Positions 5,285-59,444 of a stretch of DNA of 64,000 bases are shown here, one piece after another. Each line of letters opens with the position of its first letter. Within the stretch, counting starts at the first letter, position 1. The stretch spans positions 1 through 64,000 of the forward strand of contig AP026148.1 of NCBI GenBank assembly GCA_030295235.1, given 5' to 3'. This DNA comes from Fistulifera solaris (taxonomy: Eukaryota). A model generated the notes under the pieces. The model was not told the DNA's origin. It ran no database searches and worked only from the letters and a program-made list of their open reading frames with translations. A program made the position numbers and the translations under genes.

Positions 5285-5552
5285 CCACGACTGGATTTCT
5301 GGTCACGAACTCAGCTAAGAAATAACCAGCTTTGTCCTTTTCGTAGTAGCTACGACTAAATACGGCTAACTAAAACATCTCCGTAAGAAAGTAAATTCGT
5401 GAAAATTATAATGAGTGAAGAATTCCCGAATCAGATGCGTCCGAAGTGGTCACGAGTCACGAACGGTTCATTTCAAATTGTACCTGGTACTGGTACTGGT
5501 AGTATGATCCCAACTGAAGGCGACCTTTTCCATGACTAAATTTCTGTCACGA
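5285..5552 (-). promoter_or_regulatory. Dyad element copies 1-2 (5285-5308, 5530-5552)
   Basis: Reverse complements are TCGTGACCAGAAATCCAGTCGTGG and TCGTGACAGAAATTTAGTCATGG. Regulatory role is inferred. Confidence 0.6.
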
Positions 5553-6006
5553 TCATTACGTGCGCTTCTCTTTGAATATTTCACGGCGAATAGCTTTGTA
5601 AAGTAGAAAGAGGATGATTCAGTTCCTTTGCATCCGCTTCTTAATGCTTTTAAATGGTAAAAGTTGCCTGTAGACTGTAGCTGTAGGAGAATTGTGCACG
5701 CGAAAAAATGCACTTGGAAGGTGCAAACTACGGCATTTTCCGTTGTACGTAACACGTAAGCATCATCATGGGAAAAAGATCAGACTCTACGTAGAAAATG
5801 TACGTGAGATTGCCGTACCGAAACCAATGCAACATTGAACATAGGGCAAAAATAACCTGCGCTTCACAGAACGTTTAATTTTGTTGTTTTGCAAGGATTC
5901 GTGTCATCACGTTCTATTTTATTTGTCTTTCACCTTTGAATAGTTCCATTAAACATTGTGGTGGTTATTAAGAAGCAAGAGGTTGTAGTTGAAGCATTGA
6001 TTTATC

Positions 6007-9000
6007 ATGAAATCTCCTTTTAAACCTCCCCCTTTCTGTTTGGCTTCTTTCGGGAACGTTTCTCGCTTCGAATGCGCTGTCATCGAATTTCAACGGCAGG
6101 TCGCAAAAGCCAGAATTTGATGCGGCAAAGGGTGCTACAGGAGAGAGCTTGAATAATTTACCACTTCCTTCTGAATCAGGGCTTCCCCCTCCTTCGAACG
6201 GCTGGTCATCGACTCCTCATGTCATAAGCCCGGATCAATGGCTGAACAGCGTTTCTTTGTCAAGAAGTCCCAATTACTTCCAACAATCATGGTCAGATTC
6301 CACTAACGGAAGAAGTAGCCCTTTCGTTCCAAGTGGAAGCAGCAACAGTCCTTATTCGCAGCCTCTAACTACCGCCTCGCAACCACCAGCATCGAATGGT
6401 TCAATGTCTAACGGACAGTCTTCGACAACGGCTCATCCGCTTTCGCAAGAGAAATTTCAAAGACCTCTCTCTTCGACAACCTCGTGGACGCCAGCTTCGA
6501 TTTCTAACGGCGCAATGCAAGCGGATGTTATCAAGAAAGTCGGACTGTACGACTATCAGACTTCAATTCCATGGAGTAGCACCGAAGCTCAAGCAGCCCG
6601 AATGGCCGAACAAGCTAGAAATGCAAGACTTTTGGCGGAGGAAAAGGTACGCAGGTTGAAAGCTGAGGCCGAAGCGGAGGCGAAACGCTTGGAAGAACGA
6701 AGCCGTAAAGCGGCTGAGGAAGAGGAAGCTAGAGCACGAAAAGCTGCCGAAGAGAAAGAAAAACAACGTATCGCTGCGGAAGAGGAAAAAGCCAGACTCC
6801 GTAAAGCGGCTGAGGAAGAGGAAGCTGGAGCACGAAAAGCTGCCGAAGAGAAAGAAAAACAACGTATCGCTGCTGAAGAGGAAAAAGCCAGACTCCGTAA
6901 AGCGGCTGAGGAAGAGGAAGCTAGAGCACGAAAAGCTGCCGAAGAGAAAGAAAAACAACGTATCGCTGCTGAAGAGGAAAAAGCCAGACTCCGTAAAGCG
7001 GCTGAGGAAGAGGAAGCTGGAGCACGAAAAGCTGCCAAGGAGAAAGAAAAACAACGTATCGCTGCTGAAGAGGAAAAAGCCAGACTCCGTAAAGCGGCTG
7101 AGGAAGAGGAAGCTGGAGCACGAAAAGCTGCCGAAGAGAAAGAAAAACAACGTATCGCTGCTGAAGAGAAAAAAGCCAGACTCCGTAAAGCGGCTGAGGA
7201 AGAGGAAGCTAGAGCACGAAAAGCTGCCGAAGAGAAAGAAAAACAACGTATCGCTGCTGAAGAGGAAAAAGCCAGACTCCGTAAAGCGGCTGAGGAAGAG
7301 GAAGCTGGAGCACGAAAAGCTGCCGAAGAGAAAGAAAAACAACGTATCGCTGCTGAAGAGGAAAAAGCCAGACTCCGTAAAGCGGCTGAGGAAGAGGAAG
7401 CTGGAGCACGAAAAGCTGCCAAGGAGAAAGAAAAACAACGTATCGCTGCTGAAGAGGAAACAGCCAGACTCCGTAAAGCGGCTGAGGAAGAGGAAGCTGG
7501 AGCACGAAAAGCTGCCGAAGAGAAAGAAAAACAACGTATCGCTGCTGAAGAGGAAAAAGCCAGACTCCGTAAAGCGGCTGAGGAAGAGGAAGCTGGAGCA
7601 CGAAAAGCTGCCGAAGAGAAAGAAAAACAACGTATCGCTGCTGAAGAGGAAAAAGCCAGACTCCGTAAAGCGGCTGAGGAAGAGGAAGCTGGAGCACGAA
7701 AAGCTGCCAAGGAGAAAGAAAAACAACGTATCGCTGCTGAAGAGGAAAAAGCCAGACTCCGTAAAGCGGCTGAGGAAGAGGAAGCTAGAGCACGAAAAGC
7801 TGCCGAAGAGAAAGAAAAACAACGTATCGCTGCTGAAGAGGAAAAGCCAGACTCCGTAAAGCGGCTGAGGAAGAGGAAGCTAGAGCACGAAAAGCTGCCG
7901 AAGAGAAAGAAAAACAACGTATCGCTGCTGAAGAGGAAACAGCCAGACTCCGTAAAGCGGCTGAGGAAGAGGAAGCTAGAGCACGAAAGGCAGCAGAAGA
8001 AAAGGAGAGACAACGGATCGCTGCTATGGAAGAAGAAGCTCGACTGATCAAACTTGGCACAGAAGAGGAGGCTAAAGCTCGTGATGCTGCAGCAAAGGAA
8101 GAAGAAAAGCGTCTTATTGCTGCTGCAGAAGAGCAGTGGCGAAAGCGCGTCGCAGCTGAAAAAGAAGAAAAACGTCGGGTACAGGTCCAGGCAGAAGTTG
8201 AAGCAATCCAGCAAATTGCTGAAAGAGCTAGACTTGCCCGCCTTGCAGCCGAAGAAAATGTCCGCCGACTTAAGTCTGAGGCCATGGTTGAAGCTGCTCG
8301 TCTTTCCGCAGCACCACGTTCCTTGACCAAAAACAATTCCCCCAATTAATTCTTACCGTCGTATCGATGCAGAAGACGGAATAATACGAAGTAGGAAAGT
8401 ATCTAAGGAAGAAGAAAATCGGCGAATCGCTGAGGAAGCAGGTCGAAGAATTCCGGTAACCGCTGAAAATGAAGCTCACCGCTCGCAGGCTCAAGCAGAA
8501 GCTGAAGCAATACAAATGGCCGATAAAGTTAAAAAGACTCGACTTAAGGCTGAAGACAGTTTGCTGAGATTGAGAGTTGAAGCTGAGGCTGAAAGTGCTC
8601 GTTCGGAACAGCAACGTAAGAGAGAAGCTGATTTAGTTTCGATGGATCGAACTGCTTCGGAAAATTCACCCTCGAACAACCAGGCAAAAGATGCTCGTAG
8701 AAAACTATCTGGTCTTCGCCCACGACCAAAAGGTTTCTCCGTAATCAATGAAAAGAAAAAGAAGAAACGGAAAGGGAAGAAGAACTTAAGCAAAACGGAG
8801 CAAGGGTCGCATTCTATCATTGCATGGTTAAGTTCTGAAACTAAACTTGAAAGCGATTCCGAGCAGAAGGTAGAGGAGCAATCAACGTTAGAGAAAGCGC
8901 AGGAAATTCAGTCGGCGGTTATTGCTGCGGCAAAGCGCGACGAATCCAGCAGACGAAGCTTGTTGCAGTTTCGCTTATCCAACGAAGCGAAAAGAAGAGA

Positions 9001-11331: not shown

Positions 11332-11434
11332 AATCTCTTTAACTCTATGGACTTTCAAATCTTGAGACAAAATAAAAATTCCATTATTTATTCAAAATCA
11401 CGCTGCTTTTGCGACTACATAAAATTGCAGCTTT

Positions 11435-12316
11435 TTAAACCTCTAATTGTGATTTCAGAGGCGTTTCTTTTCCATCATACTCCCTTCCAGCAATACAAAT
11501 TGATGTTGTATCATTTGAAGGAACGGGTTCGGCAATGGCTGGCACACGATCTTCCTCTGTAAGAGACAGTGGTGCTACAATTTCTTGTAAGACAACATTC
11601 CCACTATTCGTCGCGTCAACAGAGGGTAAGGAACTTTCATTCACGGACGAATTGGAACTTAAATGAGGGAAACCCATGGCTCGTACTCGGGTTTCTCCCA
11701 AGACTTCTTTAGCGGCAGCGCGCAACTCGGGGGCGGTGAAAAGTTCTCGCCGACAATACGGGCATTCATCGTGTTTCGTTAACCACTCCATGCAACACGA
11801 ATAGTGAAATGTATGCTGACAAGTAGTTCCTCTCAGAATGCGCACACCAGGTTCGTAAGGAAGGAGGCAGATACAACACGCCCGATCATGCTGCAAGTCC
11901 GTCAGAGCGTCTTCGGAGGTTTCTGCTACAAAAGTCACTGGGGGCGCTTCATCGGGTTGCCAGCAAAGAGAGGAAGGAAAGATTCGAGCAAGCAATTTCG
12001 CTCGATCGCTCAAAGTTAACCCAAATAGTTGTGCCTTTCGACTCACCAGCCCCTGATCCATCTCTTCTGGCTCATACACGCAGCAACAGCAACAGCGATC
12101 CATGAAATGATTCAAGAAATATGTCGCCAGAATGAATACACTCAACAAAAAGAAACCCCACAGGAGAAGAAGCCCATATTCGCGTGCTTTTTCCTTTGAC
12201 GTTCGAGTCTCTTCCTCCGTTTGCAATGCTCTAAGATTTCCATGCGAAGCAACCTCAGCGATCTGAAGGATCCAAAAGCAGAGGAGACGCACTTGAAGTC
12301 GATAGTGTACGCTCAT
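11435..12316 (-). CDS. Transmembrane RING-H2 finger protein (putative E3 ubiquitin ligase)
   Basis: Signal-like N-terminus from ATG 12316, one TM helix (YGLLLLWGFFLLSVFILATYFL), and RING-H2 CCICLLPY...CQHTFHYSCCMEWL...CPYCR. Confidence 0.9.
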   Translation of the reverse strand: MSVHYRLQVRLLCFWILQIAEVASHGNLRALQTEEETRTSKEKAREYGLLLLWGFFLLSVFILATYFLNHFMDRCCCCCVYEPEEMDQGLVSRKAQLFGLTLSDRAKLLARIFPSSLCWQPDEAPPVTFVAETSEDALTDLQHDRACCICLLPYEPGVRILRGTTCQHTFHYSCCMEWLTKHDECPYCRRELFTAPELRAAAKEVLGETRVRAMGFPHLSSNSSVNESSLPSVDATNSGNVVLQEIVAPLSLTEEDRVPAIAEPVPSNDTTSICIAGREYDGKETPLKSQLEV

Positions 12317-13370
12317 TGTAAAGGTAGTCGTTGGTTTTTGCAGCGTCTGCGACGTCTTTGGTGGCGTCAAATATTGATCAGAGACTACAAAGTAGCTAGA
12401 CAATCGTAGCGTAGTGTCTTGAAACAATATTCTACTTTGTTTACTTTGGAGGCGGGGAACACAGCGCACAATGTTTAAGTCACAAGGTACGGTACGGTGC
12501 GGTGCGGTACCGGTAGCTTCTCTATCCTGCATAACAAGTACATTCCTCGTTCATCGTTCATCGTCATGGTCTCGTCCCTCTTCATCAAACTTCCGCCGAG
12601 AAGTCGGAACTCGGAACTGTTGCCAAGAAGGAAGCACTCGGAACAAAGCAAACAAAAGTGACGTGTCACGCTCTGAGAGTGTCACGTGTGAACCCTTTGC
12701 TGTGGAATATATTAACACGAAAAAAAAAGTATTTGGTATAAATCATGATAACATAATCAAACCTTAATATTTTGCCCTTTTTCACTCAATCTGTGCCAGT
12801 TTATATTGTAAATCACGTTCGAAAATGCGAATTCAACATTCAACAATACATGTTTCCATTTTCCATCCTTTATCGATAGTTGATAAGTACACAATGATAC
12901 GAAATAATTCCCAGGGAATGGTTCTGACATTCTTCGTTATTCGTTACACGTGCATAGTATTTAATTCGATACATTGAAGTAGTGTACACCAGGTAAGGTT
13001 TGAACATAACGCTGATTTGAAAGACCATGAAACGGACCGAGCGAAGAGCGAAACGCTGAACGCTGAACGCTAATACTAAAAAAAGTTGCGAAAGCAACTG
13101 GCTACGGGCTACCTGGTACCAGTACCTGGTCTTCGTACTTGTGTACTTGTAACCCAGCCAAAAGCCAAACACTGCTCAGCGCTCAGCGTTCTCAACCCGA
13201 AACGAGAAGACACAATTCTCGCCATATAACCAGCTACAGGCCTTTATTGGTGTTCAGTTGCTCATTGTAGTTAATAACAAAGCCATCTTTGCCTTTGCTA
13301 GTTTGGTTTCTGGCTTATCATTCCAGTAGACTGCTGCATTTCATTTCATTGATTTTCGCACGATCGCAAC

Positions 13371-14463
13371 ATGTCTGATTTGCTGATTACCGGAGGACCC
13401 GAAGAATCGTTGCAGTACGGCTCTTCTGCGTTAGGCATCGACGCGACGAGCATTCTCCCTTTGAGCGCGTCTCTCCCGATCAATATCCGGCGTTTGTTCG
13501 TGAAAATGATGCTACGCTTTCCTTTCCGGAAAAGGTACGCTGAGAAGGGCATTTTACATTTTAAGAGGTGGTTGTCTACTTCATCGTTTACTCACTTTTT
13601 CACGCCGCATATTAATACAACGCAACACAATATCAAAGCTAATTATGATGCTCATGCACATCGAACACGTGTGCATCTCGACGGGGCGAAGACCCGAGGA
13701 AGAAGCGATTCACTGGACGAATTCGGGAGATGCTTTTGTTGTTCGCGATGAGAACAGACTTAGTGCGGTGTGGCTTCGTGTCTTCTTCGGGGATACCAAG
13801 TACAGCTCGTTTACGCGCAAGCTATATAGATGGTCTTTCCATAAAATCAGCCCGTCGGTCTACAATCTTGACCGTAATCAAGTCACGATATTCGGTAGTA
13901 TTAACTTTCATCGTGAGCAGAAGCACCTTGTTTTGCAAATGGAAAGTCAGACTGCCGCAAAGCAGCGACGATCTATCATGGCGCAGCAGCGAAAGATCAA
14001 GCAACAGCAGCTATTGAAAAATAAAGAAACCAAGACATCTTTCAACGTGGTCCCCCAGATAGACCAGCAGGCCGATTCGTCATCTGACACGTTACTTGAT
14101 GGATTTGCGAAAGAGAGAGTGCCAAAGCCAGTTAACACAAAGTCTTCTCCCAATCGTCTCTCAACGCATGATCCCCATATTGATGTGATGGAAAGACTAC
14201 AGAAAGGTCTAGTTCTAGCCAACTTTCTCCGCGAAGGAGGTTATCAGGGGTCACTTTTAAACTTTCAGCGTTTGCTCGAGCACAATGGGACTCTACACAG
14301 CCTTGACGCTGGTGTGATCGCCAGTTCAGCATCGATTGCGGACCAACCATCCTTCGCCATGCAGTTGTTGAAACAGAGAATTCAGCAGCAAGAGGTGCAG
14401 TATGAGCGTATGCAAATGCAAGCTTTGGCGGCAATTATTCGTAATCGCTTTGCCCAAGAATGA
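13371..14463 (+). CDS. HSF-type DNA-binding domain transcription factor
   Basis: Splicing a GT-AG intron at 13535-13638 restores SFPEK|LIMML. This is followed by AIHWTNSGDAFVV, FFGDTKYSSFTRKLYRWSF and NFHRE (HSF DBD), then a Gln-rich tail. Exon 1 needs one frameshift to reach ATG 13371. Confidence 0.9.
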
Positions 14464-18922: not shown

Positions 18923-19053
18923 TCTTTCGCTCGACACTGGAAAACCAAAGAATGATTATAAATTAACAATTAAATCAAGTTGCCTCTTATCGAAAGAATG
19001 AAGGCGCATTCACGTTGAGTATGACTATAAAGCAAAGTGTAGGCTAAACTTTT

Positions 19054-19115
19054 CCACGACTAAATATCAGTCATGAATTTATGATGCATGACTCATGACC
19101 GAAAGGCAGTCGTGG
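19054..19115. promoter_or_regulatory. Dyad element copies 3-4, back-to-back pair (19054-19076 minus, 19093-19115 plus)
   Basis: TCATGACTGATATTTAGTCGTGG (minus) and TCATGACCGAAAGGCAGTCGTGG (plus). Confidence 0.65.
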
Positions 19116-19169: not shown

Positions 19170-20963
19170 TTTATTCATCGCAGTCATCAGCAACATCATC
19201 AATTGCTGCTGCTTACAAACTATTCATTCGATCTTGTTCTCTTCTCTTCACCTCATTTCCTTTTTTGATTAAAATTACATCGTGTAGACAGAAACATGAT
19301 ATTTAAGCTAAGGCAATTGGGGAAGAAGGACTTGATTGATCGTAAAGACATTGGCATTGCAAGCTCGACTGTTTTCGCTGACAATCCGCGGCAAAGCATC
19401 CCAATCGTTTCCTTTTCCAATTTGAAAGACAGCGTCATTGACGCAGAGCGTATGCGTATTCTTTCCGTTCACCATTCTCAAATGCTCGTCGCAAAGCGAG
19501 ATCCGTTGAATACAAAACATCATCAGCAACAAAATGAAACGAGAGAATTTCAAGAGGAAGAGGATGATCGCCTGAAATTTGCGTTGAATCGAATGTACCC
19601 CCAAGACTCGCAAAGGCATCATTATTTGGAGCGAACACAGTCCATTCATGATCTTGTAAAATCGATGCGAGGTCGCTGTCCGTCAAAATAGCACAAAAGG
19701 TCGACAAATCGTCCGTGTTACACAGCGTCTCGACCGCCAGGTTGTGAGAGATAATACAAGAGGGTCGCTCAGAGGCATCCATTACTTCCAACTTCTAGCG
19801 TGCAAGGATCAATGCTACGTACCAACGGTTTCACACTCATCTTGAGCCTGCTCTTCGGGGATCGCTAAGGCTTGACGAATTTTCTAGATTTGGAAGGAGA
19901 ACTTGGTTCGTCAAGTGCAGTAGGCCAGAACACGCTTGGATGTCAGGAAAAACGATTTGAGGCTGTAATTCCTCGGCATTGGCATCGCCCGTTTGGAAGA
20001 TCGTGTCACCATCACACATTGTAGTCGTGATTGACGCCGTTCGTCATGGCGATGGATGCATCGCACTGCAAATCAGAAGAAGATACAACTCCTTCCGTTA
20101 AATGATAAAGAAGAACGTTAGTGAGGAGTTCCGTGTTGGAAGCAATGCTGTCCAGTAAACTGCCCAGGTTTGTGAATGCATCATCGATGGGCGTGAAAAG
20201 GTCCAGGATCCTTCGGATAGGACGTTATCGAGGCCAATCTGCCTAACCAATGTGCAATGTGTCGACAATAGACTTGAATCGCATACCATGTTGGCTTTTT
20301 TTTATTGGAAAGAATTATGATGTGAGGAAGTTTATGGTCGTTTTATCAGTGCAATGCGGTTGGTTTAGACGCACCAATGGTTTTGCAATCTGGTACAGTT
20401 TGGGGCACCGGTACAAATTTCGCGGGTAGGATTACGTCATCAATGATATGAAGGACAGAAGAACAGGTGTTGATGTTACTGGCGACAATTTGGGGCATAT
20501 TGTCGGCGCTATTCCCATCTCCAACTTGGTATGCTGTTCGTCTTGACATACAGTGCTACTGGTTTGTCCATTTGCCATTTGTATACTGCTTGCGCCAGCA
20601 AATCATTGAAGAAAAGCAAGCCGTCGAATACATGGTAAAGAATCAAATCGGTTAAGTCGTCAGTGTTGTTGAAAATACTACGAAGATTTTCTCCGATGTT
20701 GAAGAAAGCATTGTTGGTCGGTGCGAATACGGTCCAGTTGCCCTCGTTCAAAGCAGATTTAAGTCCTGTTTGCATGATGGAAGCACAAAGTGTCAATAAA
20801 GAGCTGACGCGACAGACAAGCTCACCTATTGAACAGAACGAAGAGGAATGAGAAATAAGCTAGCTCACACATTCCAATTGGTGGCGTGCTTACCGACACT
20901 CAAGCACTGTCCCCTTGCAATTGAAAGGACTGAGGCCGAAACCAGAAGAAAGAGGAATATCAT
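19170..20963 (-). CDS. Secreted fasciclin protein, 3 FAS1 domains (heavily frameshifted; possible pseudogene)
   Basis: Signal peptide MIFLFLLVSASVLSIARGQC from ATG 20963. Three H1 (WTVFAP.N.AF-like) and H2 (LHII..V.LP-like) motif pairs. 3' end approximate. Confidence 0.85.
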
Positions 20964-21500
20964 TGTTGTACTTCTTGTGCCTAACAAGTTGCAAAAAGTG
21001 AAAGGCGACTGAAAATGCTTGCTGACATGTGCGTAGTCTCGATTCAATTTTCGGCTCGATTGTTGTTAGCAAAGGCGTGCTTTTGGTGCGGTGACTCGTG
21101 CAAAAGGAAAAAATGGGCATAACGTAAAAGTTTTGGATGGGCCGACGGCATTTTTGTGTTTTATGTCTTATGGAAGCAATCGATTTCGTACTGGCTCACT
21201 GCTAAGTTATGCCTCATCACTAAGTCAAGATTACCGGAAAAAGCCGAGCTCAAGATGGTTTTTCTTGACCAGAGGTGATTGAATGGAAGAACAGAGAGAT
21301 TTCACCGCAAGGAAAATCGCCCCTAGGGGTGGTATAGACAAAACGTGTGCAGTACAGGGATCAATTATTGAAAGCATCGTTGATTGAGACTGGGGTCGAA
21401 ATATCTACTGGCGTAAAACCAACTAAGCCACACACGGTTTAGAATGCCACTGATATACTGACTTGTTGTGAAAAGGATTCCTTAAGCTAACCTAAGTAAT

Positions 21501-24112
21501 CTATGAGAGCCTTTTAAGGGCTGGAAGTATGACTTGATTCACGACAAAGATTTGTCCGTTGCATGCCTCAAAATTTGGGCCAATTTGCGGCATGGCTTCC
21601 CAACTGTTGCCCTTGCCCATCTGGAAATTGGAGTCGTCAACACAAACGGTGCAGGTTTTTTTTCCATTGACCATCTTGATTCTGTCATTGCATTTGAGAT
21701 CCGCTGGAGAAAGTTCCTCATCGACAACATGGTACAAGACAATGTTGGTTAGGAGCTCATTATCTGCGAGAACGGCGTGAATCATTTCTGAGCCGAGATT
21801 CATGAAAGCTTCATTCGTAGGAGCAAAGACTGTGAAGGAACCCTCGCTTAACGTCCCTCCTAATCCAGCTTGGCGTGATGGCAGTGCATAATGTCGAAAA
21901 ATCATGGGTGCTACAAGCAATCTCAGCTGAATGAATGGTAAGAGGAAGTGGTATTCCAACAAAATCTCGAAAAAATCTTGTGATTAACTCACCGATTGTA
22001 CTGCAGGAAGTTGGTGTAGCTTTTTCATCGGCGCCCCATTTCAGGCACCATGTCCACCTGGTCAGGCTGCCGCAATCACTGCTATCATGACTTTTGTCTC
22101 CGAGAACTAGCACTATCTCCTCTGCCTCTGTATCACGCATCACATCTTCTATATAAGGGAGGATGACTTGATTCACGACGAAGATTTGTCCGTTGCATGC
22201 TGGGATATCGAACTCGACGATTTGCGGCATTGCGTCCCACGAAGTTACCCTCGCCTGTTTGAAAGATTGCTTCATCAGCACAAAAAGTAGTTGTTTCTTT
22301 TCCACCGGCCATTCTGATCTCTCTATTGCATTCAAGGTCAGAGGAAAGCAGCTCCTCGTCAACTACATGGCACAGAAGAATATCCGTTAGAAGATCACTA
22401 TCGGCGAGCACGGGCGTTCAACATTTCGGAGCCAATATTTGTGAATGCTTCATTCGCCGGAGCAAAGACTGTGAGGGATCCGCCACTTAGCGTTTCGCAG
22501 TCCGGCTTGCGTCACGGCGGTACACAGCGTTGAAAAGTCTTCTGTGCTACAAGCGATCTCAGCTATTATGCCATGTGAGACAATAATCCGCTCTCAAGGT
22601 CTCGATTAGCGAAGCATGATGAAAACTCACCGATTGTACTGCAGGATGTCTGAAGTTCCTCATCAACTGGTTCTGGTTCCGGCATCATTTCCTCCCCCCT
22701 CAGGCATTTCATAATCACTGCTATCATTACGTTCGTCTTCCATATCTGGCTGTCGTCTCCCCCTCTTTCTGTTTCAACCATTAGGTTCTCCATGTTGGGG
22801 AGAACAAGTTGATTCACGACAAAGATTTGGCCGTTGCAGGCGGGGATATCGAATTGGACAATTTGGCGGCATAGCATCAGGAGAGTTTCCTGCGCATGTT
22901 TGAAAGATTGCATCTTCAACACAAACGGTGGTCGTTTTCTTGCCATTAGCCATCGTGATTCTACCGTTGCATTCGAGATTGGTTGAGAGCAACGCTTCAT
23001 CGACGGCGTGATTAAGGAGAATATCGGTGAGGAGTGTGTTGTTGGCAAGGACTATGTTCAGCATTTTGGAGCCAAGATTCTTAAATCCATGATTAGTTGG
23101 AGCAAAGACGGTGAAAGATCCGCCGCTCAATGTTTGTTCCAGTCCGACTTGCGTCATGGCAACGCACAAGTTCGACAATTCTTTGGTGTTACAAGCGATC
23201 TCAGCTTCAATAATTGAGGGAAACAAAACGGAACGGCGCCAATGATGTGAGACTATGGTGGTCTGGCTGTTGTTTTTGTTTTCAAAACCGGGGAAGTCAA
23301 CTCACCGATGGTACTGCAAGTAGTGGGTGCGGCCTCTTCAATCTCCTCTTCTTCGGGTTGCGTTGTCTCCTCATTTTCCTCTTCCGCTTCAGCCATGTCT
23401 CTCATGTTGGGGAGAAGGACCCGATTCAAGACATGTAAGCGTCCTTGACATGTTTGAAGGTCTTGGCTGATGATTCGGGGGAGATCCTCCCATGAATTTC
23501 CGTTGCCTTTCTGATACAAACAATCATTGGCACAGACGGTTGTCGTTTCTTCAGCATTTGCCATTCTGACACTACCGTTGCACGAGATCAGTTGATAGCA
23601 ACTCTTCATCAACAACATGGAACAAAAGAATGTTCGAAAGCATAGTATTATCGGCACGGATAGCGTCAGCGTAATTTGGAAGGAAGCTTCAAAAACGCTG
23701 TCGTCCGTAGGAGCGAAGATGGTAAAAGATCCCTCGCTCAGAGTACTTGTCAATCCAGCTTGTGTCACGGTGGCACACAAAGTCGATAAGTTAACAATGC
23801 TACAAATAGTTTCGGCTGCAATTGAAATGGCACAAACAAGGACGTGAGAAAATCATTTATTCGATCGGTATCTTGGAAAACTTGAAAAAACTGATCTTAC
23901 GGATGGATCTGCAAGCAGTGGGTGCGACGTCATCAGCAGATCCATTCTCAGGCATGATTGCTGTTGCTCCTTGTGTCGCACCCGGCATGGTTGCTGGAAG
24001 CGAGAAAGTAATCGATGACGCACGTGGAATAAAAAATTGCAGTCTTGTCGGGAAACGTACCACTCGCATGCGCAACAAGCGTTGCAATAATCAGATTCCA
24101 AATAGATGTCAT
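21501..24112 (-). CDS. Secreted fasciclin protein, 4 FAS1 domains with acidic linkers (frameshifted)
   Basis: Leader MTSIWNLIIATLVAHASG from ATG 24112. Four FT[VI]FAP / ...NQV.LP-type domains, each preceded by a phase-1 intron after C-x-[ST]-I. Confidence 0.88.
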
Positions 24113-24779
24113 TGTTGATTTTGTGCTGTTATTCTGTAATTTCTATTCCTGGTCGTAGCAGAGATAGGATGATGATTATGACTCAAAAAATGAGGACGGA
24201 AAACGAATTTGGAAGCAATCGTCCCAATCCCTCGACGGCGTAGCCAGGACCCAGGACACAGGACACAGGACTGCTCGTTCGGAGTAGTTCATTTGCTGAC
24301 TGCGACTACAAAGTACAAAGTATCATGTTCGGCGGTTTTGTGCGTCATCGCTCGACTTGCACGGAGTATTATTTAGAAAACAGCACGAAACGGCGTGACT
24401 CAAATTTTAAAAAATCATGTCCAAATGAATCGTGTTTCTTTCAAAATCAATGTAGAAAATATCAAAGCTCTTTGAAAAGAGCGGGAAACAAGCAACTTTT
24501 CCATGCATACTAGAACTAGGACGACGGGGAATGGTTGGAATTGGTGACGAATGAGGAACGCGCTTCATGAATCAACGAACGTTAAGGTGGAGTTAAAGAC
24601 GGAATTCATACTCTAGACTACGTGGCTCTCAGTCCATGCAAATCATTGAGCTTGTGCACGAACACTTGTGCCGAGTGCCAAGTGTGTTTAGCGATGTCAT
24701 CAACCTTTCCAGATGGACGGACTCCACCTAGGTATAAACTCGCTTTTTAATATACATATTATTATTATCAACGAGCGAC

Positions 24780-26459
24780 TTACAACATTGGAAGAATGAC
24801 TTCATCTACAGCATGTAGCACACTATTATTACAAGCCGCAAGATCCACAAGAACGACCAAAGGTAATGCGGTTGCGTCGTTGCCTTGACCCGCTAGAAAA
24901 ATATCGTCGTTCTCACAAAAGGTGCGACTCGTTTGACCATTGACCATTAACACCTCGCTATCGCATACTAGATCCGTCGAGTAGACGGCGCCTTCAACTA
25001 AATGATAAAGTAGGATGTCGGTCAGGAGATCATTGTCGGCTATAACTATGTCGAGTGTGGCTCCCAAATTCGAGAACGCAATATTGGTTGGGGCGAACAA
25101 GGTAAAAGACCCTTCGCTCAGAGTTCCTGCCAAGTCGGCTTGTGTCACAGCAGAACAAAGAGTGGAAAGATTTTCTGTGCTGCATGCTATTTCGACTGCA
25201 CAACGAAGATAAAGTCAATATGAGCCATTAGCAAGTGATCTAGCACAAAGTTTCTGCGGCTGCGACGACGACGAATACTACGTACCGATAGATCGACATT
25301 CTCCGACCGGTGCTTCCATGGGAGTTACTACCGGGAATGCCATCGGATCTTTTTCTGATTCGTTTAGACTAGGCAAAAGGACATCGCTTACCAGATGCAG
25401 TACACCATTGCAGGCGTGAACGGATAATTCAATTTGGGGCAACGATGAGGCTTCGTTTCCGTTGGCGACTTGAAAGATTGAATCAGCGTGACAAACTGTT
25501 GTTGTTTGTTGACTATTTGCCATGGTTAAAGTGCCACCGCACTCCAAAGAACTCGAGTAAATAACGCCTTCAATTGCGTGTGTGAGTAAGATATCTGTTA
25601 GAAGCGAATTGTTCGCTAGAGCTGTCGTAAGCGTATTGCCAAGTCTCGCAAAAGCATCGTTCGTCGGAGCGAATATCGTCCAGGACCCTCCACCCAAAGC
25701 CTCCCGTAAACCAGCTTGTGTGATTGCTGTGCACAGCGTTGAAAACAAACTAGATTCGCATACAATATCAGCTGATTATGATGAACCAAAGTGTTCGTTT
25801 AGATAAAGCTCTTGTGATAACTCGTTTTCGCTGAATAAGCAAGAGACGTACCAATGGTTTTACAGCCAGCCGGTATCTGAGATTCAGGGCCAAGTTCAGC
25901 TGGTAAAAGAACTTCATCCACCATATGTACTACTCCGGAACAGGTTTTGATATTACTGGCTACCACTTGAGGCATTGCACCCAAACCATTCCCCCTGTCC
26001 TTTTTGATAGATAGAGTCTCTTTGACATTCCGTTCTACTTGTCTGCCCGTTTGCCATTTCTAACGATCCTGAGCAAGTCAAATCCTCCGCATTGACGATT
26101 CCTTGAACCGTATGATATAAAATTACGCCCGCAAGAACGTCAGCATTTCCAAGTACAACTCCAAGTCGATCGCCAAGTTTGAAAAAAGCGCCGTTTGTCG
26201 GCGCGAAGACAGTCCAATTTCCTCTATTCAGCTGTGTTCCGATGCCCGCTTGCGTTACAGAAGCGCAAAGCATAGAAAGCGTACTGACGCGGCATATAAA
26301 ATCGACTGTCAAGAAAGATTTGTGTGAGGTAACGTGGACTTACGAGAATGAATTGTGAGGACTTTTTCGACAACGCTTACCAATACTAATGCATTGTGCA
26401 CTCGTAGGCGCCAAAACAGCCGCGGAAACAACAATAAGAAGACCAACAGATCTCTTCAT
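24780..26459 (-). CDS. Secreted fasciclin protein, 3 FAS1 domains
   Basis: Signal peptide MKRSVGLLIVVSAAVLAPTSAQCISI from ATG 26459. Domain exons at ~26305-25852, 25771-25285 and 25195-24780 (WTVFAPTN, WTIFAPTN, FTLFAPTN). One frameshift near 25995. Confidence 0.92.
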
Positions 26460-30142: not shown

Positions 30143-30663
30143 TCATGACTGAAATGCAGTCGTGGCAAAGTCTGTTGTCGATGCGAAAGACAACTATCAC
30201 TATCCGCAGCCCTTTCGCCATCCCGAATCAATCCGTGCGCTACAAATGCGGCTGATGGATATTAAAACCGATTCAATAGCGGAGAAGTGATTCAGACAAC
30301 CATCTTACTAGAGTATTTAAACGAGGAATGAGTCATTATTTCCTTCATGGACCGGAGTTGTGCCGAGATAACTGTTGATGATTGCCGTGTGGTTACAATG
30401 TTGACTAAAGCGTGATTTGGATTGCTTGGGAGCATCTGAGTAACTGTTACAGAATGAACTATTGTCTACTGTTAACTGGCTTGCTTGCTTCGTGAGAACG
30501 GTAATAGGAATCTGGAACTTTAGTTTGTGAAACGAAGACTTATGACAAAGCCAAGTGTGAACCTAGTCTATATATCGTGGATCCATGCGTTCGTCAGTGT
30601 AAACTGTGAATTCTTACACGAGGCAAGAAGTAACCACGTCTCGTGACTTAAATCCAGTCGTAA
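30143..30663 (+). promoter_or_regulatory. Dyad element copies 5-6 (30143-30165, 30641-30663)
   Basis: TCATGACTGAAATGCAGTCGTGG and TCGTGACTTAAATCCAGTCGTAA. Confidence 0.65.
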
Positions 30664-41044: not shown

Positions 41045-41067
41045 TCGTGACTTAAATACAGTCGTGG
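41045..41067 (+). promoter_or_regulatory. Dyad element copy 7
   Basis: TCGTGACTTAAATACAGTCGTGG, ~240 bp upstream of the IF1-like ATG. Confidence 0.65.
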
Positions 41068-41307
41068 TTTGAAAAGGTCGCTTACACCTTGTACGTATAC
41101 AAACTATCCCGTAACTTATTCGAGACGGAGAACAAGTTCGCTTCGTGGGAACGCGATTCTCGTTGGTGCGAAGAAAAAAGATGTCACTTTTTCGAAAACA
41201 TTGTTCGAAGCGAATACGATTCATTGCATTCTCATTCTCATATTTTCAAACAAGCAACGCACTCATCCAATAAATTAAAATTAATAGAGGAGACAGAAAC
41301 CTTGAAG

Positions 41308-45532: not shown

Positions 45533-45696
45533 ACGAAAACGAATGGGAATGTTGTTTTATGCTGCTATACGTTATGCGTTACAAATGGCGAACTTGTTTA
45601 CAAAGTATTGCATTCAATTCAATACGATTGTAAAGACTGCGGCGACACAAGCTACCACTAAGGCTACGAGTTACCGAAAAGAAGTCTGACGACGAC

Positions 45697-45719
45697 TCAT
45701 GGCTGAAATGCAGTCGTGG
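45697..45719 (+). promoter_or_regulatory. Dyad element copy 8
   Basis: TCATGGCTGAAATGCAGTCGTGG, upstream of the RING-H2 gene. Confidence 0.65.
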
Positions 45720-46288
45720 AGAAAAACGGGCAACATTTTCACCAATAGTAAATTTTGACATCATTATTTGACTAAAAGACGATCTGCGCAACTTTTAGTC
45801 ATGATAAAATCGTCACAACATCAACACGAATACCTTCCCCTACCTATTATTCCCCTAAAAATCTTTTAGGTGCAGAATTGTGAAACGATCAACGGTGTTT
45901 CTACGTATGTCAGGGAACTGCGTTAAAATTCTTCCTCGTCGTAAACGCTACGTAGAATCTTGTACTGGGAGGCAGAATTTTAACGTCCTTCCCAGACCCC
46001 TCTAAATTTCAAAGCGTTCGTACTGTAGAAAGGTGTTCATCACTGATGCAAAAATAGTGCCTGTCGCAATTTGTTCGTCGCTCAATGATGAAAAGATACC
46101 GAAAAAGTGGAGAGCATATTTCCAGGGTAATGAACAAGAGCAACGAATTAATAGTACGTTATCGTTTTATTTCCGAATGCGCCGCCTCGTGGTCAGTCAC
46201 TACTTCAATCACTTCTTCCATCTAATGACTCAATTTTTCATAACTAATTCTTGACTTTCGTAAATTACCAATACTCTCGCAATCATCC

Positions 46289-47244
46289 TTACTCCGACGG
46301 CAAGTACCCATGTTCGACGTTGTAACGTTGGAAATAATCTTGCAAAAAGTGACGTCCTTCGTGAAACAACGACAAACTGATAATCGCCTTGGCAATACCG
46401 ATTCCTTGTCCTCGGAAGATTCCGCGCATACCGAACGTGGTCATATCGTGGAACATTTCCTTGACGGCGTCTTGAACGGGAATCGATTTACCTTGAATCG
46501 AATTCGTTTGCATAATAACTTCCAGACGACTCAACGGGTTCGTCACCACAACGTAGATGGGAGACACGACACTGGAAGCAATCAAGCCCGTGGCGGAACG
46601 TCCCCAATTGGTCTTGTCGCCGACTTCCTTTTGAATGTACTTTTGTAGACGCGGTTGACCAACCAAACCGAGCAAGGCCGATGCCATCGAGTGCCCCATG
46701 AGCGGGATGGATCCACGGAAGAGCGGAGCAAACTTTTGAGCGGCGGATTCTTTGAGAATATCCCAAATGGGCTTGGCTTTTCCGGTTTGTCGGAAATAGG
46801 CGCGTTGCTGCTTTTCGATCATGCGAATGGGGTTAATGAAAGGTGCCGAGAGAATAGAAGCCGCAGTGGCGGCAGCGAAACCAGGATTCTCGCCTTCCCC
46901 GAGGAAGAAGGAAAAGCCGAGAAGAATACCGAACTTGGGAACTCGTTTGAAGCCGACACCGATCAAACGAGGCGTCACACCCGAAAGGGACGCCGAAATA
47001 GGATGAGCAACAAACACAGCGCGTGCTTCCTTTACAGCGATGCGAGGATCTACCGGCTTACCAGCGGCATCCTTTGCATATTGCTGCACAAGCTGACGGT
47101 AAGCAGTCACAGGATTATCGACGATAGTCTGAAAAGCAGAGCCTCCTAAGTACGCGGTGAGTGCTTGTGCTTGCGAAAGACCTGTCTTTTCACGACGAAA
47201 AAGTCAGCGGGGATAAACGGAATAGAGGAAGCGTTTGAACTCAT
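46289..47244 (-). CDS. Mitochondrial carrier family (SLC25-like) protein, divergent signature
   Basis: Threefold repeat with P at the start of each signature (NPVTAYRQ, NPIRMIEK, NPLSRLEV), plus LFRG and GMRGIFRG. ATG 47244 needs one frameshift. Confidence 0.8.
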
Positions 47245-47608
47245 ATTGTAATCTTATCGTTTGTTTTCTTTAACTGTAAATTCAGAAGAAACAAAGCTGC
47301 TTGCTGTTACAAAACAAAAGACAATAACAGCAACAAAGAGTAGACGACGACAAGAAAATGTCGACGGCAATGCTGCGCAACGCTGCTTAACTTTTTCAAA
47401 ATGACCGGTATGCCGCAAAGATACATATTCGCGCACAATAATGTAGTAGTACCTTCTTGATTGATTGATGCGACACTGACGATGCAGGTATTATTTTAAA
47501 TAAATCACATTAATGACGTTTTCAAATTAGCAATGAAACACGATTCGGAGTAATGTATAGACTTTGAAGTAGTCTTGGGGACGGTTGGTCATGGACCACT
47601 TTCACGAC

Positions 47609-47830
47609 ACCCGACTGAATGCAGTCGTGGTAAAGTTGATAGAACACTTTGTCCTACAGTGTAGAGTCCAATGTTAGAAGGAGCGATTGACCGTCTCTAC
47701 AAAGGAGTCCTTTGGTTTAATCCCAACCAGTGCATTCTTTAAGTATAGCAGCAGGTATTTGTATCATGAGATCAAGTAGAAATGTCGCTCTACAGGAAGT
47801 CGATGATTCATGACTGAAATGCAGTCGTGG
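47609..47830 (+). promoter_or_regulatory. Dyad element copies 9-10 (47609-47630, 47808-47830)
   Basis: CCGACTGAATGCAGTCGTGG and TCATGACTGAAATGCAGTCGTGG. Confidence 0.65.
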
Positions 47831-47927
47831 TGAAGTGCCGCTTACACAATGGGTCAATACAACAGTACCGGTAAGAGGTAAGAAAGGTTTTAAATTGTCT
47901 CTCTTTTTTTTCTCTCGATGTATTTTT

Positions 47928-51681: not shown

Positions 51682-52366
51682 CTTTTCCAACGCTTTCTCT
51701 AATCTAAGTTGCAAGGCTTGTTTTAGTTGTTCTATTCTTTGTTTAATGATTCACTGAACGTCAATAAATCCTTTCGTTGTGTTAAATCTAATAATTGCCT
51801 CGGTTGCTTTAATGAATGAACTCTCTCTCTCTCGTGTTTCCATGGTTGCGTTTTTTTTTCTCCGACGAAAACGAGATCCGTTGAGACTCGATACAATCTG
51901 TACACCGATTCCGGAATGGAAGAAACACGACAGACATCGATCCAAATGGAATTCAGGAACGGATGGAATGCCGATCAAATTGTAGGAAAAGGACAGGCTG
52001 ACGTGCGATTGGTCATCGGTTTCGATAAATAGATGAGTCTTGCCAAGTTTTCTTCACCAATCGACAGAGTTGAAGTATCTCTCCACCAGTATCAAGCTGA
52101 AGATGCTATCTAGGGCTCTAGGGAGAGAGAGGGAGAGTCGTAAGCAGTCAATGAGGCTGAAATACACAATTTACGGGTCGCCCGGTCGTCGATAAATTTC
52201 CTACGGGGGTTACGTGCCAATCACGTAGACATTCGAAGCATCGCATCTTTCCTCTTTTCGATGTTTACATCGCAATTTTAAGAATCTCAAAACATTGGAG
52301 ATTGGGTGGTACCAGGTACCGGTACCGTAAAAACAACCAGGATCAGTATGCTACTCTATCTCTCTC

Positions 52367-52389
52367 TCGTGACTGAAATCAAGTCGTGG
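52367..52389 (+). promoter_or_regulatory. Dyad element copy 11
   Basis: TCGTGACTGAAATCAAGTCGTGG, upstream of MscS copy 1. Confidence 0.65.
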
Positions 52390-52704
52390 TGGACTCGCAA
52401 AAACTTTCACCTAGGGTGAACTTTGCAGGGCATGGGACCGGTGTAAAATTGGCAGCACCGTATGTGATTTGGGTGATTATCCTCGCAATCGATGTCGTTC
52501 GGCGTTGCCATGCTTGAATTTAAATCAGAAAGTACTCGCTTGAATCTTCTCACTTGCGGAAAGCTGAAAGGAGAGAGTGAAGGTGGAGGATGAGATGTAC
52601 AAGCATTTAAGACGTGTTTCACACTGCAGATTTTTCACATGAATCAATGAGGAACCATTGCTGATTATTGATGAAATGACAAGAAAAAGAGTGTTGCTTA
52701 TTCA

Positions 52705-55700: not shown

Positions 55701-57158
55701 ATGCTTATTGGCGTGAGATGCCGTGCTCATTTGCGGTTTACTAATCATGGCCGGTCGTGCCACATTGGCGTTCGTCGCAGTGCTTTTTTGTGGCTTGTTC
55801 ATCATGGCGGGCCGGGCAATATGGTTAGAGTTGGTCGCCGTACTCATTTGCGGCTTATTGATCATGGCGGGTCTGCCAAGAGGATTGGATTGCGTTGCAG
55901 TACTTTTTTGAGGCTTGTTGATCACATCTGGTTTGGAAGCATTTGGCTTGGAAACATTGGTAGTGCTCGAAGTTGCTTTGGAGTTCACCGACACGCCTTC
56001 TGCGACCGATGTATGATCGGGAATATCTTTACCGGCCAAGGCCCCGTCGCCTTTTTCATCATCATCGTCCTCATCATCGCTTAAAAATACATCGGTATCG
56101 GGAACATGCCGCAAAATCGTGGAACCACTTCGACTGACATTATCAAAGGATTTTGTGCGCGCCCGTTGTTGCTGTTGTTGTTGCTTGGCCAATCGGCGTT
56201 CGACGGCGACAAGAATAGCGTTTTCTGCTTCACTTTCCATACTACTCGGTCCTGATACATCCTGCAGTGTCACCAACATGGGTTGTAGATTTTTACTGGG
56301 TGGTACCAATTGCGGCATGGCCAGAGACTCGGGTGCTGGAGCGCTGGCAAATTCAGTCTCTTCCATCGAACCAGTAGTGAGCGGACTGTAGGCAACACTG
56401 TTTGACGAATCCGCCACCATTGCCATCCACTTCTCGACGTCTGTATTCGAAAAGGCTGGTCGGTTGGTTTTGTTGGATGTCATAGGAACGGGTGGTCGAG
56501 GAGGTGAAAATGTGGGAGGAGGCAATCGGTTGGGGGCAAGAAGACTCGTGGGCGGAGAATTCTGCGTTGGATTACTTTGCGTTGCTAAATCTTTTCCGAC
56601 CTGATCACTCCAAGATAATTGTCGGTTGGCTGTTTTGGGTTTGGGAAGCATCAATTTGTTACTCGCCAAGTCGCTGACAATGTTTTCTTCTTTTAAAGAG
56701 GAAAGAGGAGGAGAAGAGGGCGGAGTGGCATCCCGTGGTTGATTTTGTGTCGCGAGATCTTTTCCGAAATGATCACTCCATGAAAGTTGCCGATTCGCAG
56801 GTTTCGGTTTGGGAAGCAAAGGCTTACTCATGCTACTCGCTGCAGGCAACTCGCTTAAAGTGTCGTAGACTGGCTGGGTAAAAGTAGGAGTATTAGGATG
56901 AAGAGGAGGAGGTGAAAAAGGCGCTGGAGGAGAAATCTGTGGTTGATCGGATGTTGTGGGACTAGTTCCTAGCTGATCACTCCAAGAGAGTTGTCTATCT
57001 TTCGCTGGTTTCGGTTTTAAAAGTATCGGCACGTTCGAATTGTTGCTCGAAGTCAAATCGCTGACACTTTCGTCCTCATTTTCTGATTTCGTTTCTTCTT
57101 TCTTAGATTGTGCGGTCGGCGGCTTTCCGCTATTCGTGAGAGATTCGTCATTATTCAT
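52705..57158 (-). CDS. MscS-like mechanosensitive ion channel (copy 2, tandem paralogue)
   Basis: Same core motifs (RPYDIGDRIHV, SRVINFARSP). Introns 53785-53866, ~53360-53441 and ~52976-53060. Frameshifts near 55380 and in a homopolymer at ~53721. Confidence 0.92.
55715..55925 (-). repeat. Coding ~60-bp tandem repeat, ~3.5 copies (NKPQ[KM]STAT.....RPAM[IM])
   Basis: Visible in the translation of ORF 55275-57347. Confidence 0.85.
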
Positions 57159-57324
57159 TTTATTAGCGCTGACACCGATGCCTTTGTAGGTATCTTGAAA
57201 ATGGTTGATGCAATCGTTCGAAAGAAGCAAGTGTTTGTTTTTTTTTTCGTTTTGCCGGCTCTGTGCGCGGTTGGTTGTTGTGAGGCGGAAAAGTGACATG
57301 ACGTGTAGCGTGTAGCCTCGTGAC

Positions 57325-57349
57325 TCATGACTGAATAATGCAGTCATGA
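57325..57349. promoter_or_regulatory. Dyad element copy 12 (perfect 9-bp arms)
   Basis: TCATGACTG-AATAATG-CAGTCATGA, ~170 bp upstream of the MscS copy 2 ATG. Confidence 0.65.
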
Positions 57350-57751
57350 ATTTCGAATGGGTCTACACTTCGTAACTATAGTGGATTTTGCACCTAGAGT
57401 TTCCACGTACTAGTAACGACTACCATTTAAATTTGCCCGGTGAGTCACAAAGTCTATGGCTTAAACGTTACATTCGCTGGTAGGAAGAAACATCCATACA
57501 TTAATCAGCTGGATTTTCGTAGGTCACTGCTTGGCATCCCTGGTAGCGACATCATCTTCTACTAATTGACTAGCAATTACATTACCAGGTAACGAAATCG
57601 AATAGAACTTTAGATCTAAAGTATAACTTCTACTTATGTCTGCCATAATATGTATGGAGAAAGCGGCAGAGGCGTGTATGAACTGTTCAAAAGATTCGAT
57701 TTTCCTTCATTCAGAAGAAACTTCGGGGACGCCCCATCGCAGCTGTCATGT

Positions 57752-58887
57752 TTAAGGCAACATTACCTCATCAAGGATATGCAGGATTCCGTTACAGGCG
57801 GGCAAGTTCACCTCGATAATCTCCGGCATGTCGCTTCGTGGGTTACCAGCTCCTTTCTGGAAGACGGAGGCCCCACGACAGACGGTGCGGCTGTCCTTTC
57901 CATTGGCCATTTTGACTCGCTTCTTGCACCGAAGATCGGTGGATAGGACTTCACCAGCAACGGCGTGGAAAAGAAGAATGTCCATCAACAAGTCCTTGTC
58001 GGCCAAGACATCATTGAGTGTGTCGCCTAGCTTTTCAAAAGCAGCATTGTTGGGCGCAAATACAGTCCACGAGCCGCTGCTCAGGGCTTCCCCGAGCCCA
58101 GCTTCAGTGACGGCTGTACAGAGCGTCGAAAAATCATCCGTGCTGCAAGCAATCTCGGCTGCAAATGGACGTTAGTGATTTTTAGTATGCGATTTTCCCT
58201 GGTAATTTGTGTTCACGTACCGATGGACATGCAATCACCCGTAGGTGCGGCAACAGGGGTAGGAGCTGGGACCGGAGCCGGTACCGGAACGGGAGCGGGA
58301 ACCGAAACCGGAACAGGAGCTGGAGCTGAAACAAAAAGCATTACCTCATCAATCTCGTGAATCAGCCCATTGCATGCTTTGATGTCTGTGGTTAAAATTT
58401 CTGGCATCGCGTCGCGGCTATTCCCTGCTCCTTTCTGGAAGATGGAATCCCCACGGCAGACAGTACGACTGTCGGCACCGTTCGCCATTGTCACCGTTTC
58501 TCTGCACTTCAGATCCTTTGAAAAGACTTCTCCTTCAACGGCATGGAAGAGCAAGATACTTGTCAACAAGTCCTTGTCAGCCAAGACATCATTGAGGGTG
58601 TCGCCTAACTTTTCAAAAGCAGCATTGTTGGGCGCAAATACAGTCCACGATCCTTCGCTCAAAGCCTCGGCAAGCCCAGCTTCAGTGACTGCCGTACAAA
58701 GAGTCGAGAAATCTTCCGTGCTGCAAGCAATTTCAGCTGCGAATCACAATATTAGGTTAGGGTACAAGTCTTATACATGGGTTCGCAATGAATTTATCTC
58801 AGAACACATACCGATAGAAGAGCACTGAGCTCGCACCGATTCAACGAGAGCGGCAGCCAAGACGAGTTTAGAGAGACGTAGGAACAT
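57752..58887 (-). CDS. Secreted fasciclin protein, 2 FAS1 domains with (PA/PV)n linker
   Basis: Exons 58887-58812, 58736-58221 and 58158-57752. Signal peptide MFLRLSKLVLAAALVESVRAQC; WTVFAPNNAAF occurs twice. Confidence 0.95.
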
Positions 58888-59421
58888 GTTAAATACACTG
58901 TTTTTCAGGTTTGGAGAAGATTTTCTTCGTCAATGTTTGACGTTTTATGAAGAAAAAGGTGATCTGCGATGGAATGCAAATTGGGCGTACTGTTCACATA
59001 CAAGACTTTGCGGTCGGTGAGGTACAGTCATACAGTGATGCACATGACGTACCAGGCACTTTACAGTATCTTTCAAAAGATAAGTGGACTTTTTCCAAAT
59101 AAGCGCGAAGGTGATTTAAGACGCCGGCAGGCAGAAAGCATCTAGCTATTTCTGGAATTTGGCGCGACAGGATGTAGTTGGCGAAAGTTTCCACGGTACA
59201 GTACAAAATTCAGTCGAATGTCAAGATTAGATTCTGACGATTAAAAAATTAGAAAAAATTGACGTGTTGTACTTGTACCAGCGTCAGTTGGAAGAGTCGC
59301 CGAGCCGTTCATAACCGTTCGGATATATGTTGTGACAGTACTTTGTATCATAATATAAACACTCTACTACGCTCCAACCTCGTACCCGGTACCAGGTATC
59401 CTTCGTGTGGATGAAGTGGAC

Positions 59422-59444
59422 TCGTGATTGATATGCAGTCGTGG
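59422..59444 (+). promoter_or_regulatory. Dyad element copy 13
   Basis: TCGTGATTGATATGCAGTCGTGG, upstream of the 2-domain fasciclin gene. Confidence 0.6.

Follow-up and report, generated by a model that had tools for sequence, protein, structure and literature searches.

The stretch analysed here, hereafter the window, comprises the first 64,000 nucleotides of Fistulifera solaris contig AP026148.1 and forms the telomeric start of C26, in a genome assembly of 51.7 Mb and 62 contigs that was searched as a whole. Dispersed along it is a 23-bp dyad element with a TCRTGA end, a CGTGG end and the inner arms GACT-N7-AGTC, which we read from its sequence, at about an even chance, as the relic of a mobile unit whose dyad may be retained as a putative protein-binding site. 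The element is real, abundant and apparently undescribed, with evidence for both mobility and present constraint. All 13 coordinates listed by an earlier inspection of the letters alone (the sequence-only reading) do carry the dyad, ten of them as clean 23-mers and three with indels, namely one extra base at 5285, a damaged left arm with a loop one base shorter at 47609, and a loop two bases longer with the right arm CATGA at 57325. Leave-one-out scoring with a position weight matrix (PWM) of ten copies gave 23.9 to 38.1 bits for nine of them and 3.6 bits for the copy at 5285, which is out of register; the copy at 5530, outside the training, scores 25.5 bits. Since none of 30 order-3 Markov controls reached 20 bits, the copies are far above chance. 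A weak PWM match at 13866 lies inside the coding sequence (CDS) of an HSF-domain gene and was rejected. Copies 5 and 10 indeed match over all 23 bp at a separation of 17,665 bp, while the form GACT-N7-AGTC, ascribed to most copies, is exact in 6/13 and its looser version GAC-N9-GTC is found in 8/13, so that the majority is reached by the looser version only. The genes neighbouring the copies include a hydrolase, a RING protein, a mitochondrial carrier, a fasciclin and a PqiA-like protein, and 17 of the 24 open reading frames (ORFs) of the window are without a Pfam match.

The scan beyond the window that the sequence-only reading had called for shows a genome-wide family. A tight dyad pattern has 347 exact matches in the genome against 0 for the reversed control, an arms-only pattern gives 1,256 rows against 7 for its control (some sites being counted on both strands), and with a PWM whose training set came from other contigs 744 kb yield 64 copies, their reversed sequence yielding 0. 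By extrapolation of the PWM density the total is probably ~ 4,400 copies, and probably ~ 2,400 from the arms-only count, with ~ 85% true distinct sites and 29/64 copies exact. No match to the tight pattern was observed in metagenome contigs. A looser pattern hits 34 metagenome loci and 20 viral-contig loci, all single matches without a spacer match; these are read as chance, all 34 metagenome ones scoring 12 bits or less. The loose pattern is also matched, at 6–11 bits and without a spacer match, by a repeated palindromic element that is unrelated and occurs in nine metagenome contigs. Neither the window nor three arrays matched any Rfam family, and a tRNA search of 8 loci found 0 tRNAs, hence no sign of a tRNA-derived short interspersed element. 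No description of the element was found in a literature coverage that leaves out most subscription journals and Repbase. As exact strings, two 15-mers were not found in the papers searched, where just 11-mers occur in unrelated papers. In the available part of a promoter-motif study with its 11 supplements (PMC5935921) no motif contains ATGAC, GACT, AGTC or GTCAT, a comparison that misses degenerate spellings.

The dyad had been taken for a free-standing element of about 23 bp, a description that has to be extended: conservation continues for ~ 32 bp beyond the CGTGG end, and the dyad opens a core of ~ 55 bp, within which it is followed by a linker of 12–13 bp (97/102 training cores), ACACTTT, ~ 5 bp and CTATAGT. 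A spacer of ~ 165 bp joins the cores into units of 200–250 bp (~ 220 bp) arranged as tandem arrays, a candidate for the longer parent element that the sequence-only reading had proposed to look for. Window copies 1 and 2 (245 bp apart) and 9 and 10 (199 bp apart) are spaced at this unit period. Between arrays at different loci the mean identity is 77% for the core and 57% for the spacer; with 40 of 71 candidates scored, one spacer has at least 77 matches on at least 18 contigs, and the best matches at other loci are 80–87% identical. Furthermore, the arrays are ordered. Their first and last cores often differ, in fixed order, linker type B being last in 8/36 arrays, first in 0/36 and internal in 0/42 cores, and in 12/12 cases the last core is succeeded by a CAGACGGAAATTCTG tail, which has 61 exact genome matches against 0 for controls. 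Arrays often start at the dyad and finish just past a core; the starts and ends do not fall at a single phase and the left ends are ragged. Upstream of 9/67 copies a 7-bp TCRTGAC duplication is present, creating TGACTCA.

C25 is the collinear second copy of C26, with the best gene blocks 84–87% identical and an identity of 77.3% at 12,067 four-fold sites. Judged by eye against this homoeolog, the 13 copies of the window fall into 7 that are shared, 5 with nothing at the aligned site and 1 of ambiguous status (Table 1), and hence the family turns over like mobile DNA. Copy 4 has lost its linker and box by deletion in the window, both being intact in the homoeolog. Moreover, C25 carries young arrays that are not in C26, with flanks retained, some of which adjoin an old shared core and three of which sit within short CAGAAAATCTG repeat arrays kept by both homoeologs. 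An obligatory link of dyad arrays to CAGAAAATCTG arrays was rejected, being seen at 9/31 loci only. Given that there is no outgroup, gain and loss are indistinguishable at any single homoeolog-specific site. The best-matching spacers at other loci are closer to each other (80–87%, from BLAST and hence biased high) than the neutral identity of the homoeologs (77%), which suggests a spread after or near the subgenome split.

Table 1. Dyad and core copies in the window (window positions) and their state in the homoeologous chromosome.
Feature	Position	Strand	Remarks
Dyad copy 1, one extra base	5285..5308	-	245 bp from copy 2; homoeologous site without it
Core copy 2 (dyad 5530-5552, box decayed)	5506..5552	-	Homoeologous site without it
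Core copy 3 (dyad 19054-19076, linker, ACACTTT, TATAGT)	19025..19076	-	Common to homoeolog, 22/23
Copy 4 (dyad 19093-19115)	19086..19115	+	Near-copy of its own first 7 bp upstream; shared, 22/23
Dyad copy 5, without box	30143..30165	+	Shared with homoeolog, 21/23
Dyad copy 6, without box	30641..30663	+	Shared with homoeolog, 21/23
Core copy 7	41045..41092	+	Shared, 18/23; homoeolog has two further cores upstream, 186 and 204 bp spacing
Full core copy 8	45697..45749	+	Aligned site without counterpart; homoeolog gap has an opposite-strand core elsewhere
Additional degenerate dyad, missed by the sequence-only reading	47556..47578	+	Exact GACT-N7-AGTC at 47560; homoeolog keeps part
Core copy 9, left arm damaged	47609..47659	+	199 bp from copy 10; homoeologous site without it
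Core copy 10, consensus dyad	47808..47859	+	Adjoins 3' end of upstream minus-strand gene; homoeologous site without it
Copy 11	52367..52400	+	Homoeolog gap occupied by another repeat family; sharing ambiguous
Core copy 12 (dyad 57325-57349, longer loop)	57318..57382	+	7-bp TCRTGAC duplication upstream; shared
Core copy 13	59422..59466	+	Shared with homoeolog (C25:67774)

The homoeologous pairs also permit an estimate of constraint. Of 31 PWM matches in C26, 24 lie in alignable gaps and 20 aligned with at most one gap; the 18 pairs that passed a filter of 14/23 identity constitute the shared set. In these 18 pairs the inner arms are identical at 137/144 positions (95%) and the whole arms at 253/287 (88%), compared to 103/126 for the loop (0.817), 148/196 for the linker (0.755), 0.784 for the flanks and 0.773 for four-fold sites; the impression of arms conserved around a variable loop, gained from the window alone, thus holds between subgenomes (95% vs 82%). 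Under neutrality, a simulation that applied this ascertainment yields an inner-arm identity of ~ 0.80 and reached the observed value in 0/2,000 runs, and an empirical null of random intergenic windows under the same filter gives 114.7/144 and reached it in 0/20,000. Other GACT/AGTC tetramers are conserved at 929/1,148 (81%; Fisher test against the inner arms, 4e-6), and over-conservation of the arms is likewise seen in the homoeolog that played no part in detection. Together, ~ 20–26 pairs from a single chromosome arm, on which the signal rests, give good indication that the dyad arms evolve more slowly than the surrounding DNA, as if they were still protein-bound.

Two kinds of ligand or structure had been suggested for the dyad besides a dimeric regulator, a REP-like hairpin and a bZIP-type half-site, and neither agrees with the copies. 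The consensus dyad folds as DNA at -5.5 kcal/mol (z -5.5) and 5/8 folded copies have a z above -2. Among 110 distinct 23-mers each central pair has one dominant type (100–107/110), and the proposed check of arm covariation, made at 9 pairs, revealed none with a compensated type within its seven most frequent ones; this covers pairs 8/16 and 9/15, on which the collecting pattern put no constraint. The absence of compensatory pairs indicates that the dyad is read as sequence and not as a hairpin. The dyad was also rightly described as asymmetric and of fixed spacing: an arm spacing of 7 has 32 matches compared to 0–6 for each other spacing between 5 and 14, and the outer arms are asymmetric in 64/64 copies. 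They are perfected in 0/64, so self-correction of a palindrome does not explain the conservation of the arms. In bZIP / AP-1 sites the TGAC half-sites abut or overlap, whereas those of the dyad are 9 bp apart. Together, the lack of compensation, the asymmetric outer arms and the preferred spacing would be the pattern of a double-stranded site read by a putative protein.

Gene positions were taken from our own hidden Markov model calls, checked over 20 kb against spliced, poly-A-bearing contigs from three probable RNA runs of one study; missing cover of cores by such contigs is not usable as evidence. Near copy 7, spliced-gene contigs start at 41243–41246 (two runs, one study). Consistent with the first description, no copy lies in a called CDS, neither among the 13 of the window, which is 58% genic, nor among the 64 PWM matches in 744 kb. 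In tandem gaps the TCRTGA end points toward the gene start at 28 loci and the opposite way at 11 (P=0.009), in agreement with the reported tendency of the CGTGG end to face away from the gene. This tally is the sum of C26 (12:3) plus two hand-added window copies, C25-only loci (2:2) and other loci (12:6), some of which may be mutual homoeologs; without the two hand-added copies it is 26:11. Of the 64 copies, 42 are antisense and 22 sense. A restriction to promoter-containing gaps fits the window, where the status of 52367 is ambiguous because it depends on a single 158-bp gene call, but fails outside it, since C26:93035 and C25:126843/127430 (two loci) lie between convergent long ORFs. The stated absence from convergent gaps, which make up 8% of gap DNA, similarly holds on other contigs (0/36 typed loci, P=0.047) and not at these two loci. 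Nor is there a fixed promoter position: 60/64 copies are 75–1,209 bp from a called CDS start, as distinct from a true start site, with no peak, and within tandem gaps starts are not preferred over ends (7:10:1 and 10:9). A core promoter element would keep a set distance from the start and be strictly oriented towards it; the copies do neither, and 'between genes, oriented' suits the data better than 'promoter element'.

These observations would be accommodated by a small non-autonomous mobile repeat, made of ~ 220-bp units in fixed order with the CAGACGGAAATTCTG tail, that would have spread between genes over a long time and would still have been spreading after the subgenome split. After insertion, decay of the spacer, the linker and often the ACACTTT box would leave solo dyads such as those of the window, and selection would keep the inner arms through a protein reading double-stranded DNA, which would recognise them, in an oriented way, as a pair of inverted half-sites separated by about 1.5 turns.

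Several results weigh against this scheme. The spacer is detectable in 0/13 window copies, and in the 744-kb sample it is kept in 12/67 upstream and 10/67 downstream flanks (reverse-complement controls 0/67), hence the descent of the window copies from full units would follow from shared core and linker types. Among the 24 alignable copies 6 are not counted as shared, and many copies are lost or lineage-specific, so that each single copy is dispensable. If the detected lineage is assumed to be frozen, which is the harshest case, the constraint has P=0.004 for the 18 pairs, 0.058 on adding 2 ambiguous pairs and 0.013 on adding 6 hand-aligned pairs. Profile searches of the genome disclosed no mobilising enzyme: PF14214 gave 0 hits with a silent control, PF05970 0 hits with even the host Pif1 undetected, PF00589 and PF12012 0 hits, and PF01797, the Y1 HUH transposase, 0 hits with a working control; as two of the five had silent controls and three were weak tests, these blanks carry little weight. 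Lastly, neither terminal inverted repeats (TIRs), target-site duplications (TSDs, another of the suggested checks) nor a clean empty site were seen at array ends or in homoeolog comparisons, the latter being too diverged for a base-exact empty site.

Part of the same evidence would suit a purely selfish relic without host role, whose arms would only seem conserved, through ascertainment, a low mutability or conversion between its thousands of copies. Turnover between homoeologs, mid-gap positions without start preference, the occurrence in convergent gaps, a shared location with further repeat families (9/31 young loci vs 13/133 background windows) and the worst-case P of 0.058 can all be understood in this way. 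Set against it are the excess conservation of the homoeolog unused for detection, the 81% identity of the same tetramers elsewhere and the neutral divergence of the loops and linkers of the same copies, which speaks against conversion; we regard a purely selfish relic as possible, though unlikely.

Alternatively, the dyad may have been a host cis-element first, a general regulator or boundary site whose arrays arose without a transposon, through tandem duplication in place and ectopic copying. The 165-bp spacer and the ordered core series with a shared tail on many contigs require movement as a block, and there is no fixed distance to starts, which make this origin quite unlikely in spite of the constraint, the fixed spacing, the orientation bias, the under-used convergent gaps, the presence of copies in 26/128 and 21/131 gaps of at least 300 bp and the lack of an enzyme or termini. 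A bolder extension of the mobile-unit reading is about equally improbable: an undescribed class of self-spreading element would have seeded ~ 1/6 of intergenic gaps with an oriented 8-7-8 site, putatively bound by a host or domesticated recombinase-like boundary or organiser protein, the ~ 220-bp unit matching chromatin spacing. Few genome-wide cis-elements are known to have been characterised in diatoms. With its thousands of copies, its bias in orientation and a constraint that can be measured, the 23-bp site lends itself to use as bait in pull-downs and as a target of reporter or deletion assays, and gaps that carry the element in a single subgenome are natural controls for effects on homoeolog expression.

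Other repeats share the chromosome arms with the dyad family. Short-repeat arrays of CAGAAA(A/T)TCTG are found at C26:93050-93330, 120088-121362 and 165931-166508 and in several C25 gaps; one interrupts the right arm of the C26:93035 dyad, and three of the young dyad arrays are enclosed by arrays of this kind. A second family of ~ 200-bp units, with a core starting GATAAATTTCC and a CTACGT..CGTAG hairpin, is present at window 52190-52240 and forms a long two-type array at C25:77500-79500, where C26:69810-69861 has a dyad core. A short CCCTAA pair adjoins the young array at C25:165880. [quoted passage not shown] A 1,063-bp tandem repeat of C1 with a perfect TCATGACT..AGTCATGA belongs to a different family, without a long ORF; this non-coding repeat occurs near-identically at two C1 places, one at C1:1575400-1578100 and the other adjoining a broken retrotransposon-like frame (by eye). 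In the window itself, positions 1-680 hold telomeric (CCCTAA)n and then, at 446-679, a tandem repeat of 18 bp, and 6600-8150 holds a coding 96-bp repeat with 14 copies, most of them 98% alike, within a long ORF rich in Glu, Lys and Ala, much shorter in the homoeolog. Tandem fasciclin-domain repeat clusters occupy 19300-26100 and 57700-60500, ~ 5 kb of the first (roughly 21.1–27.1 kb) having no collinear homoeolog match. Single-base indels relative to public-run contigs at 47186, 51682, 53721, 55363 and other positions are probably frame-breaking assembly errors.

Among known systems, MITEs are marked by TIRs together with a TSD, and the arrays, which show neither at their ends, were not assigned to them. 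REP and IS200-type hairpins have a structure kept by compensatory change and depend on a Y1 HUH transposase; the lack of compensated pairs and the 0 hits to PF01797 speak against this class. Terminal-repeat retrotransposons in miniature (TRIMs) and solo long terminal repeats have identical terminal repeats, TG..CA ends, a primer site and a purine tract, whereas the first and last cores often differ and start with TC (for the primer site and the tract the assessment was by eye). The suggestion of a transposon relic forms part of the explanation, the dyad being the core of a repeat unit that has probably spread, and is compatible with binding; no TIR, TSD or known terminus was found with it. Since no tested end-structure fits, the mobilising enzyme may be new.

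According to the accessible portion of PMC4067079, canonical Helitrons have a 5' TC, a 3' CTRR, a palindrome of 16–20 nt ~ 11 bp from the 3' end and A/T insertion. The present element resembles them in its tandem arrays, its short palindrome and a reverse-strand tail that begins with TC, and differs in that neither a constant CTRR at ~ 11 bp to the palindrome nor a constant A/T target nor a Rep/helicase hit was found. CTATAG does occur ~ 25 bp after the dyad, with homology continuing past it, and a reverse-strand Helitron reading (TC tail, CTAG lead) was rejected given that the bases adjoining the tail, and in some leads those adjoining a CTAG, are not constant. The aligned leads, a small left-end sample, showed neither a common left end nor the tail in inverted copy. 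The likeness to the Helentron-related HINE/DINE-1 elements, including the oyster Cg_HINE, extends further in the portions available (PMC4067079, PMC7492417): these too are non-coding and dispersed, with short satellite-like arrays that differ in unit number and move as blocks, and they too have short palindromes and no apparent target duplication. Their 12–15-bp subterminal inverted repeats, T-rich target and Rep/helicase partner were not found here, and their 3' palindrome, which occurs once at the 3' end, contrasts with a palindrome in every unit of the present element. Replitrons, marked by a Rep HUH transposase and short terminal direct repeats, are not detected in diatoms according to the part of PMC10288648 available.

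CryptonS tyrosine-recombinase transposons do occur in a diatom, with sites having 6–8-bp spacers and with terminal direct repeats of 5–6 bp, mostly TATGG (PMC3212892, in part). The shared points are the diatom occurrence, inverted arms around a 6–8-bp spacer and non-autonomous derivatives (in animals); the arms of the dyad are shorter, solo cores number in the thousands, and no 5–6-bp terminal repeat or linked recombinase appears, TATGG being present on the reverse strand of the second box in some cores and not in others, with element termini undefined. That the dyad is itself the site of a Crypton-like tyrosine recombinase or an HUH enzyme, whose circles would excise and integrate at existing cores to give core-(spacer-core)n arrays and solo cores, is very unlikely: its inverted 8-7-8 geometry with an asymmetric spacer, the arrays that often run from a dyad to just after a core and the new units beside old shared cores are set against arms of 8 bp, of which only 3–4 positions are invariant, where a recombinase core site has two of 11–13 bp (the 7-bp spacer does fit the 6–8 bp between them), array starts and ends at more than one phase, first and last cores that differ in fixed order, the absence of a linked enzyme and a hairpin reading without compensation, with 5/8 folds above z -2.

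Along with the Helentron-type elements, the closest parallel to a mobile-unit relic with a retained dyad is offered by the MITEs that spread transcription-factor motifs in plants (PMC5950925) and by the exaptation of transposable elements as cis-elements, of which few claims are proven (PMC3649676), a caution that applies to the dyad as well. Unlike the MITE-spread motifs, the element has no TIR or TSD, its motif is a long spaced dyad, and its function is supported only by subgenome conservation. Common to these systems and, on the reading preferred here, to the present one is a short motif that a mobile element brings to sites between genes and that may persist once its carrier is gone.

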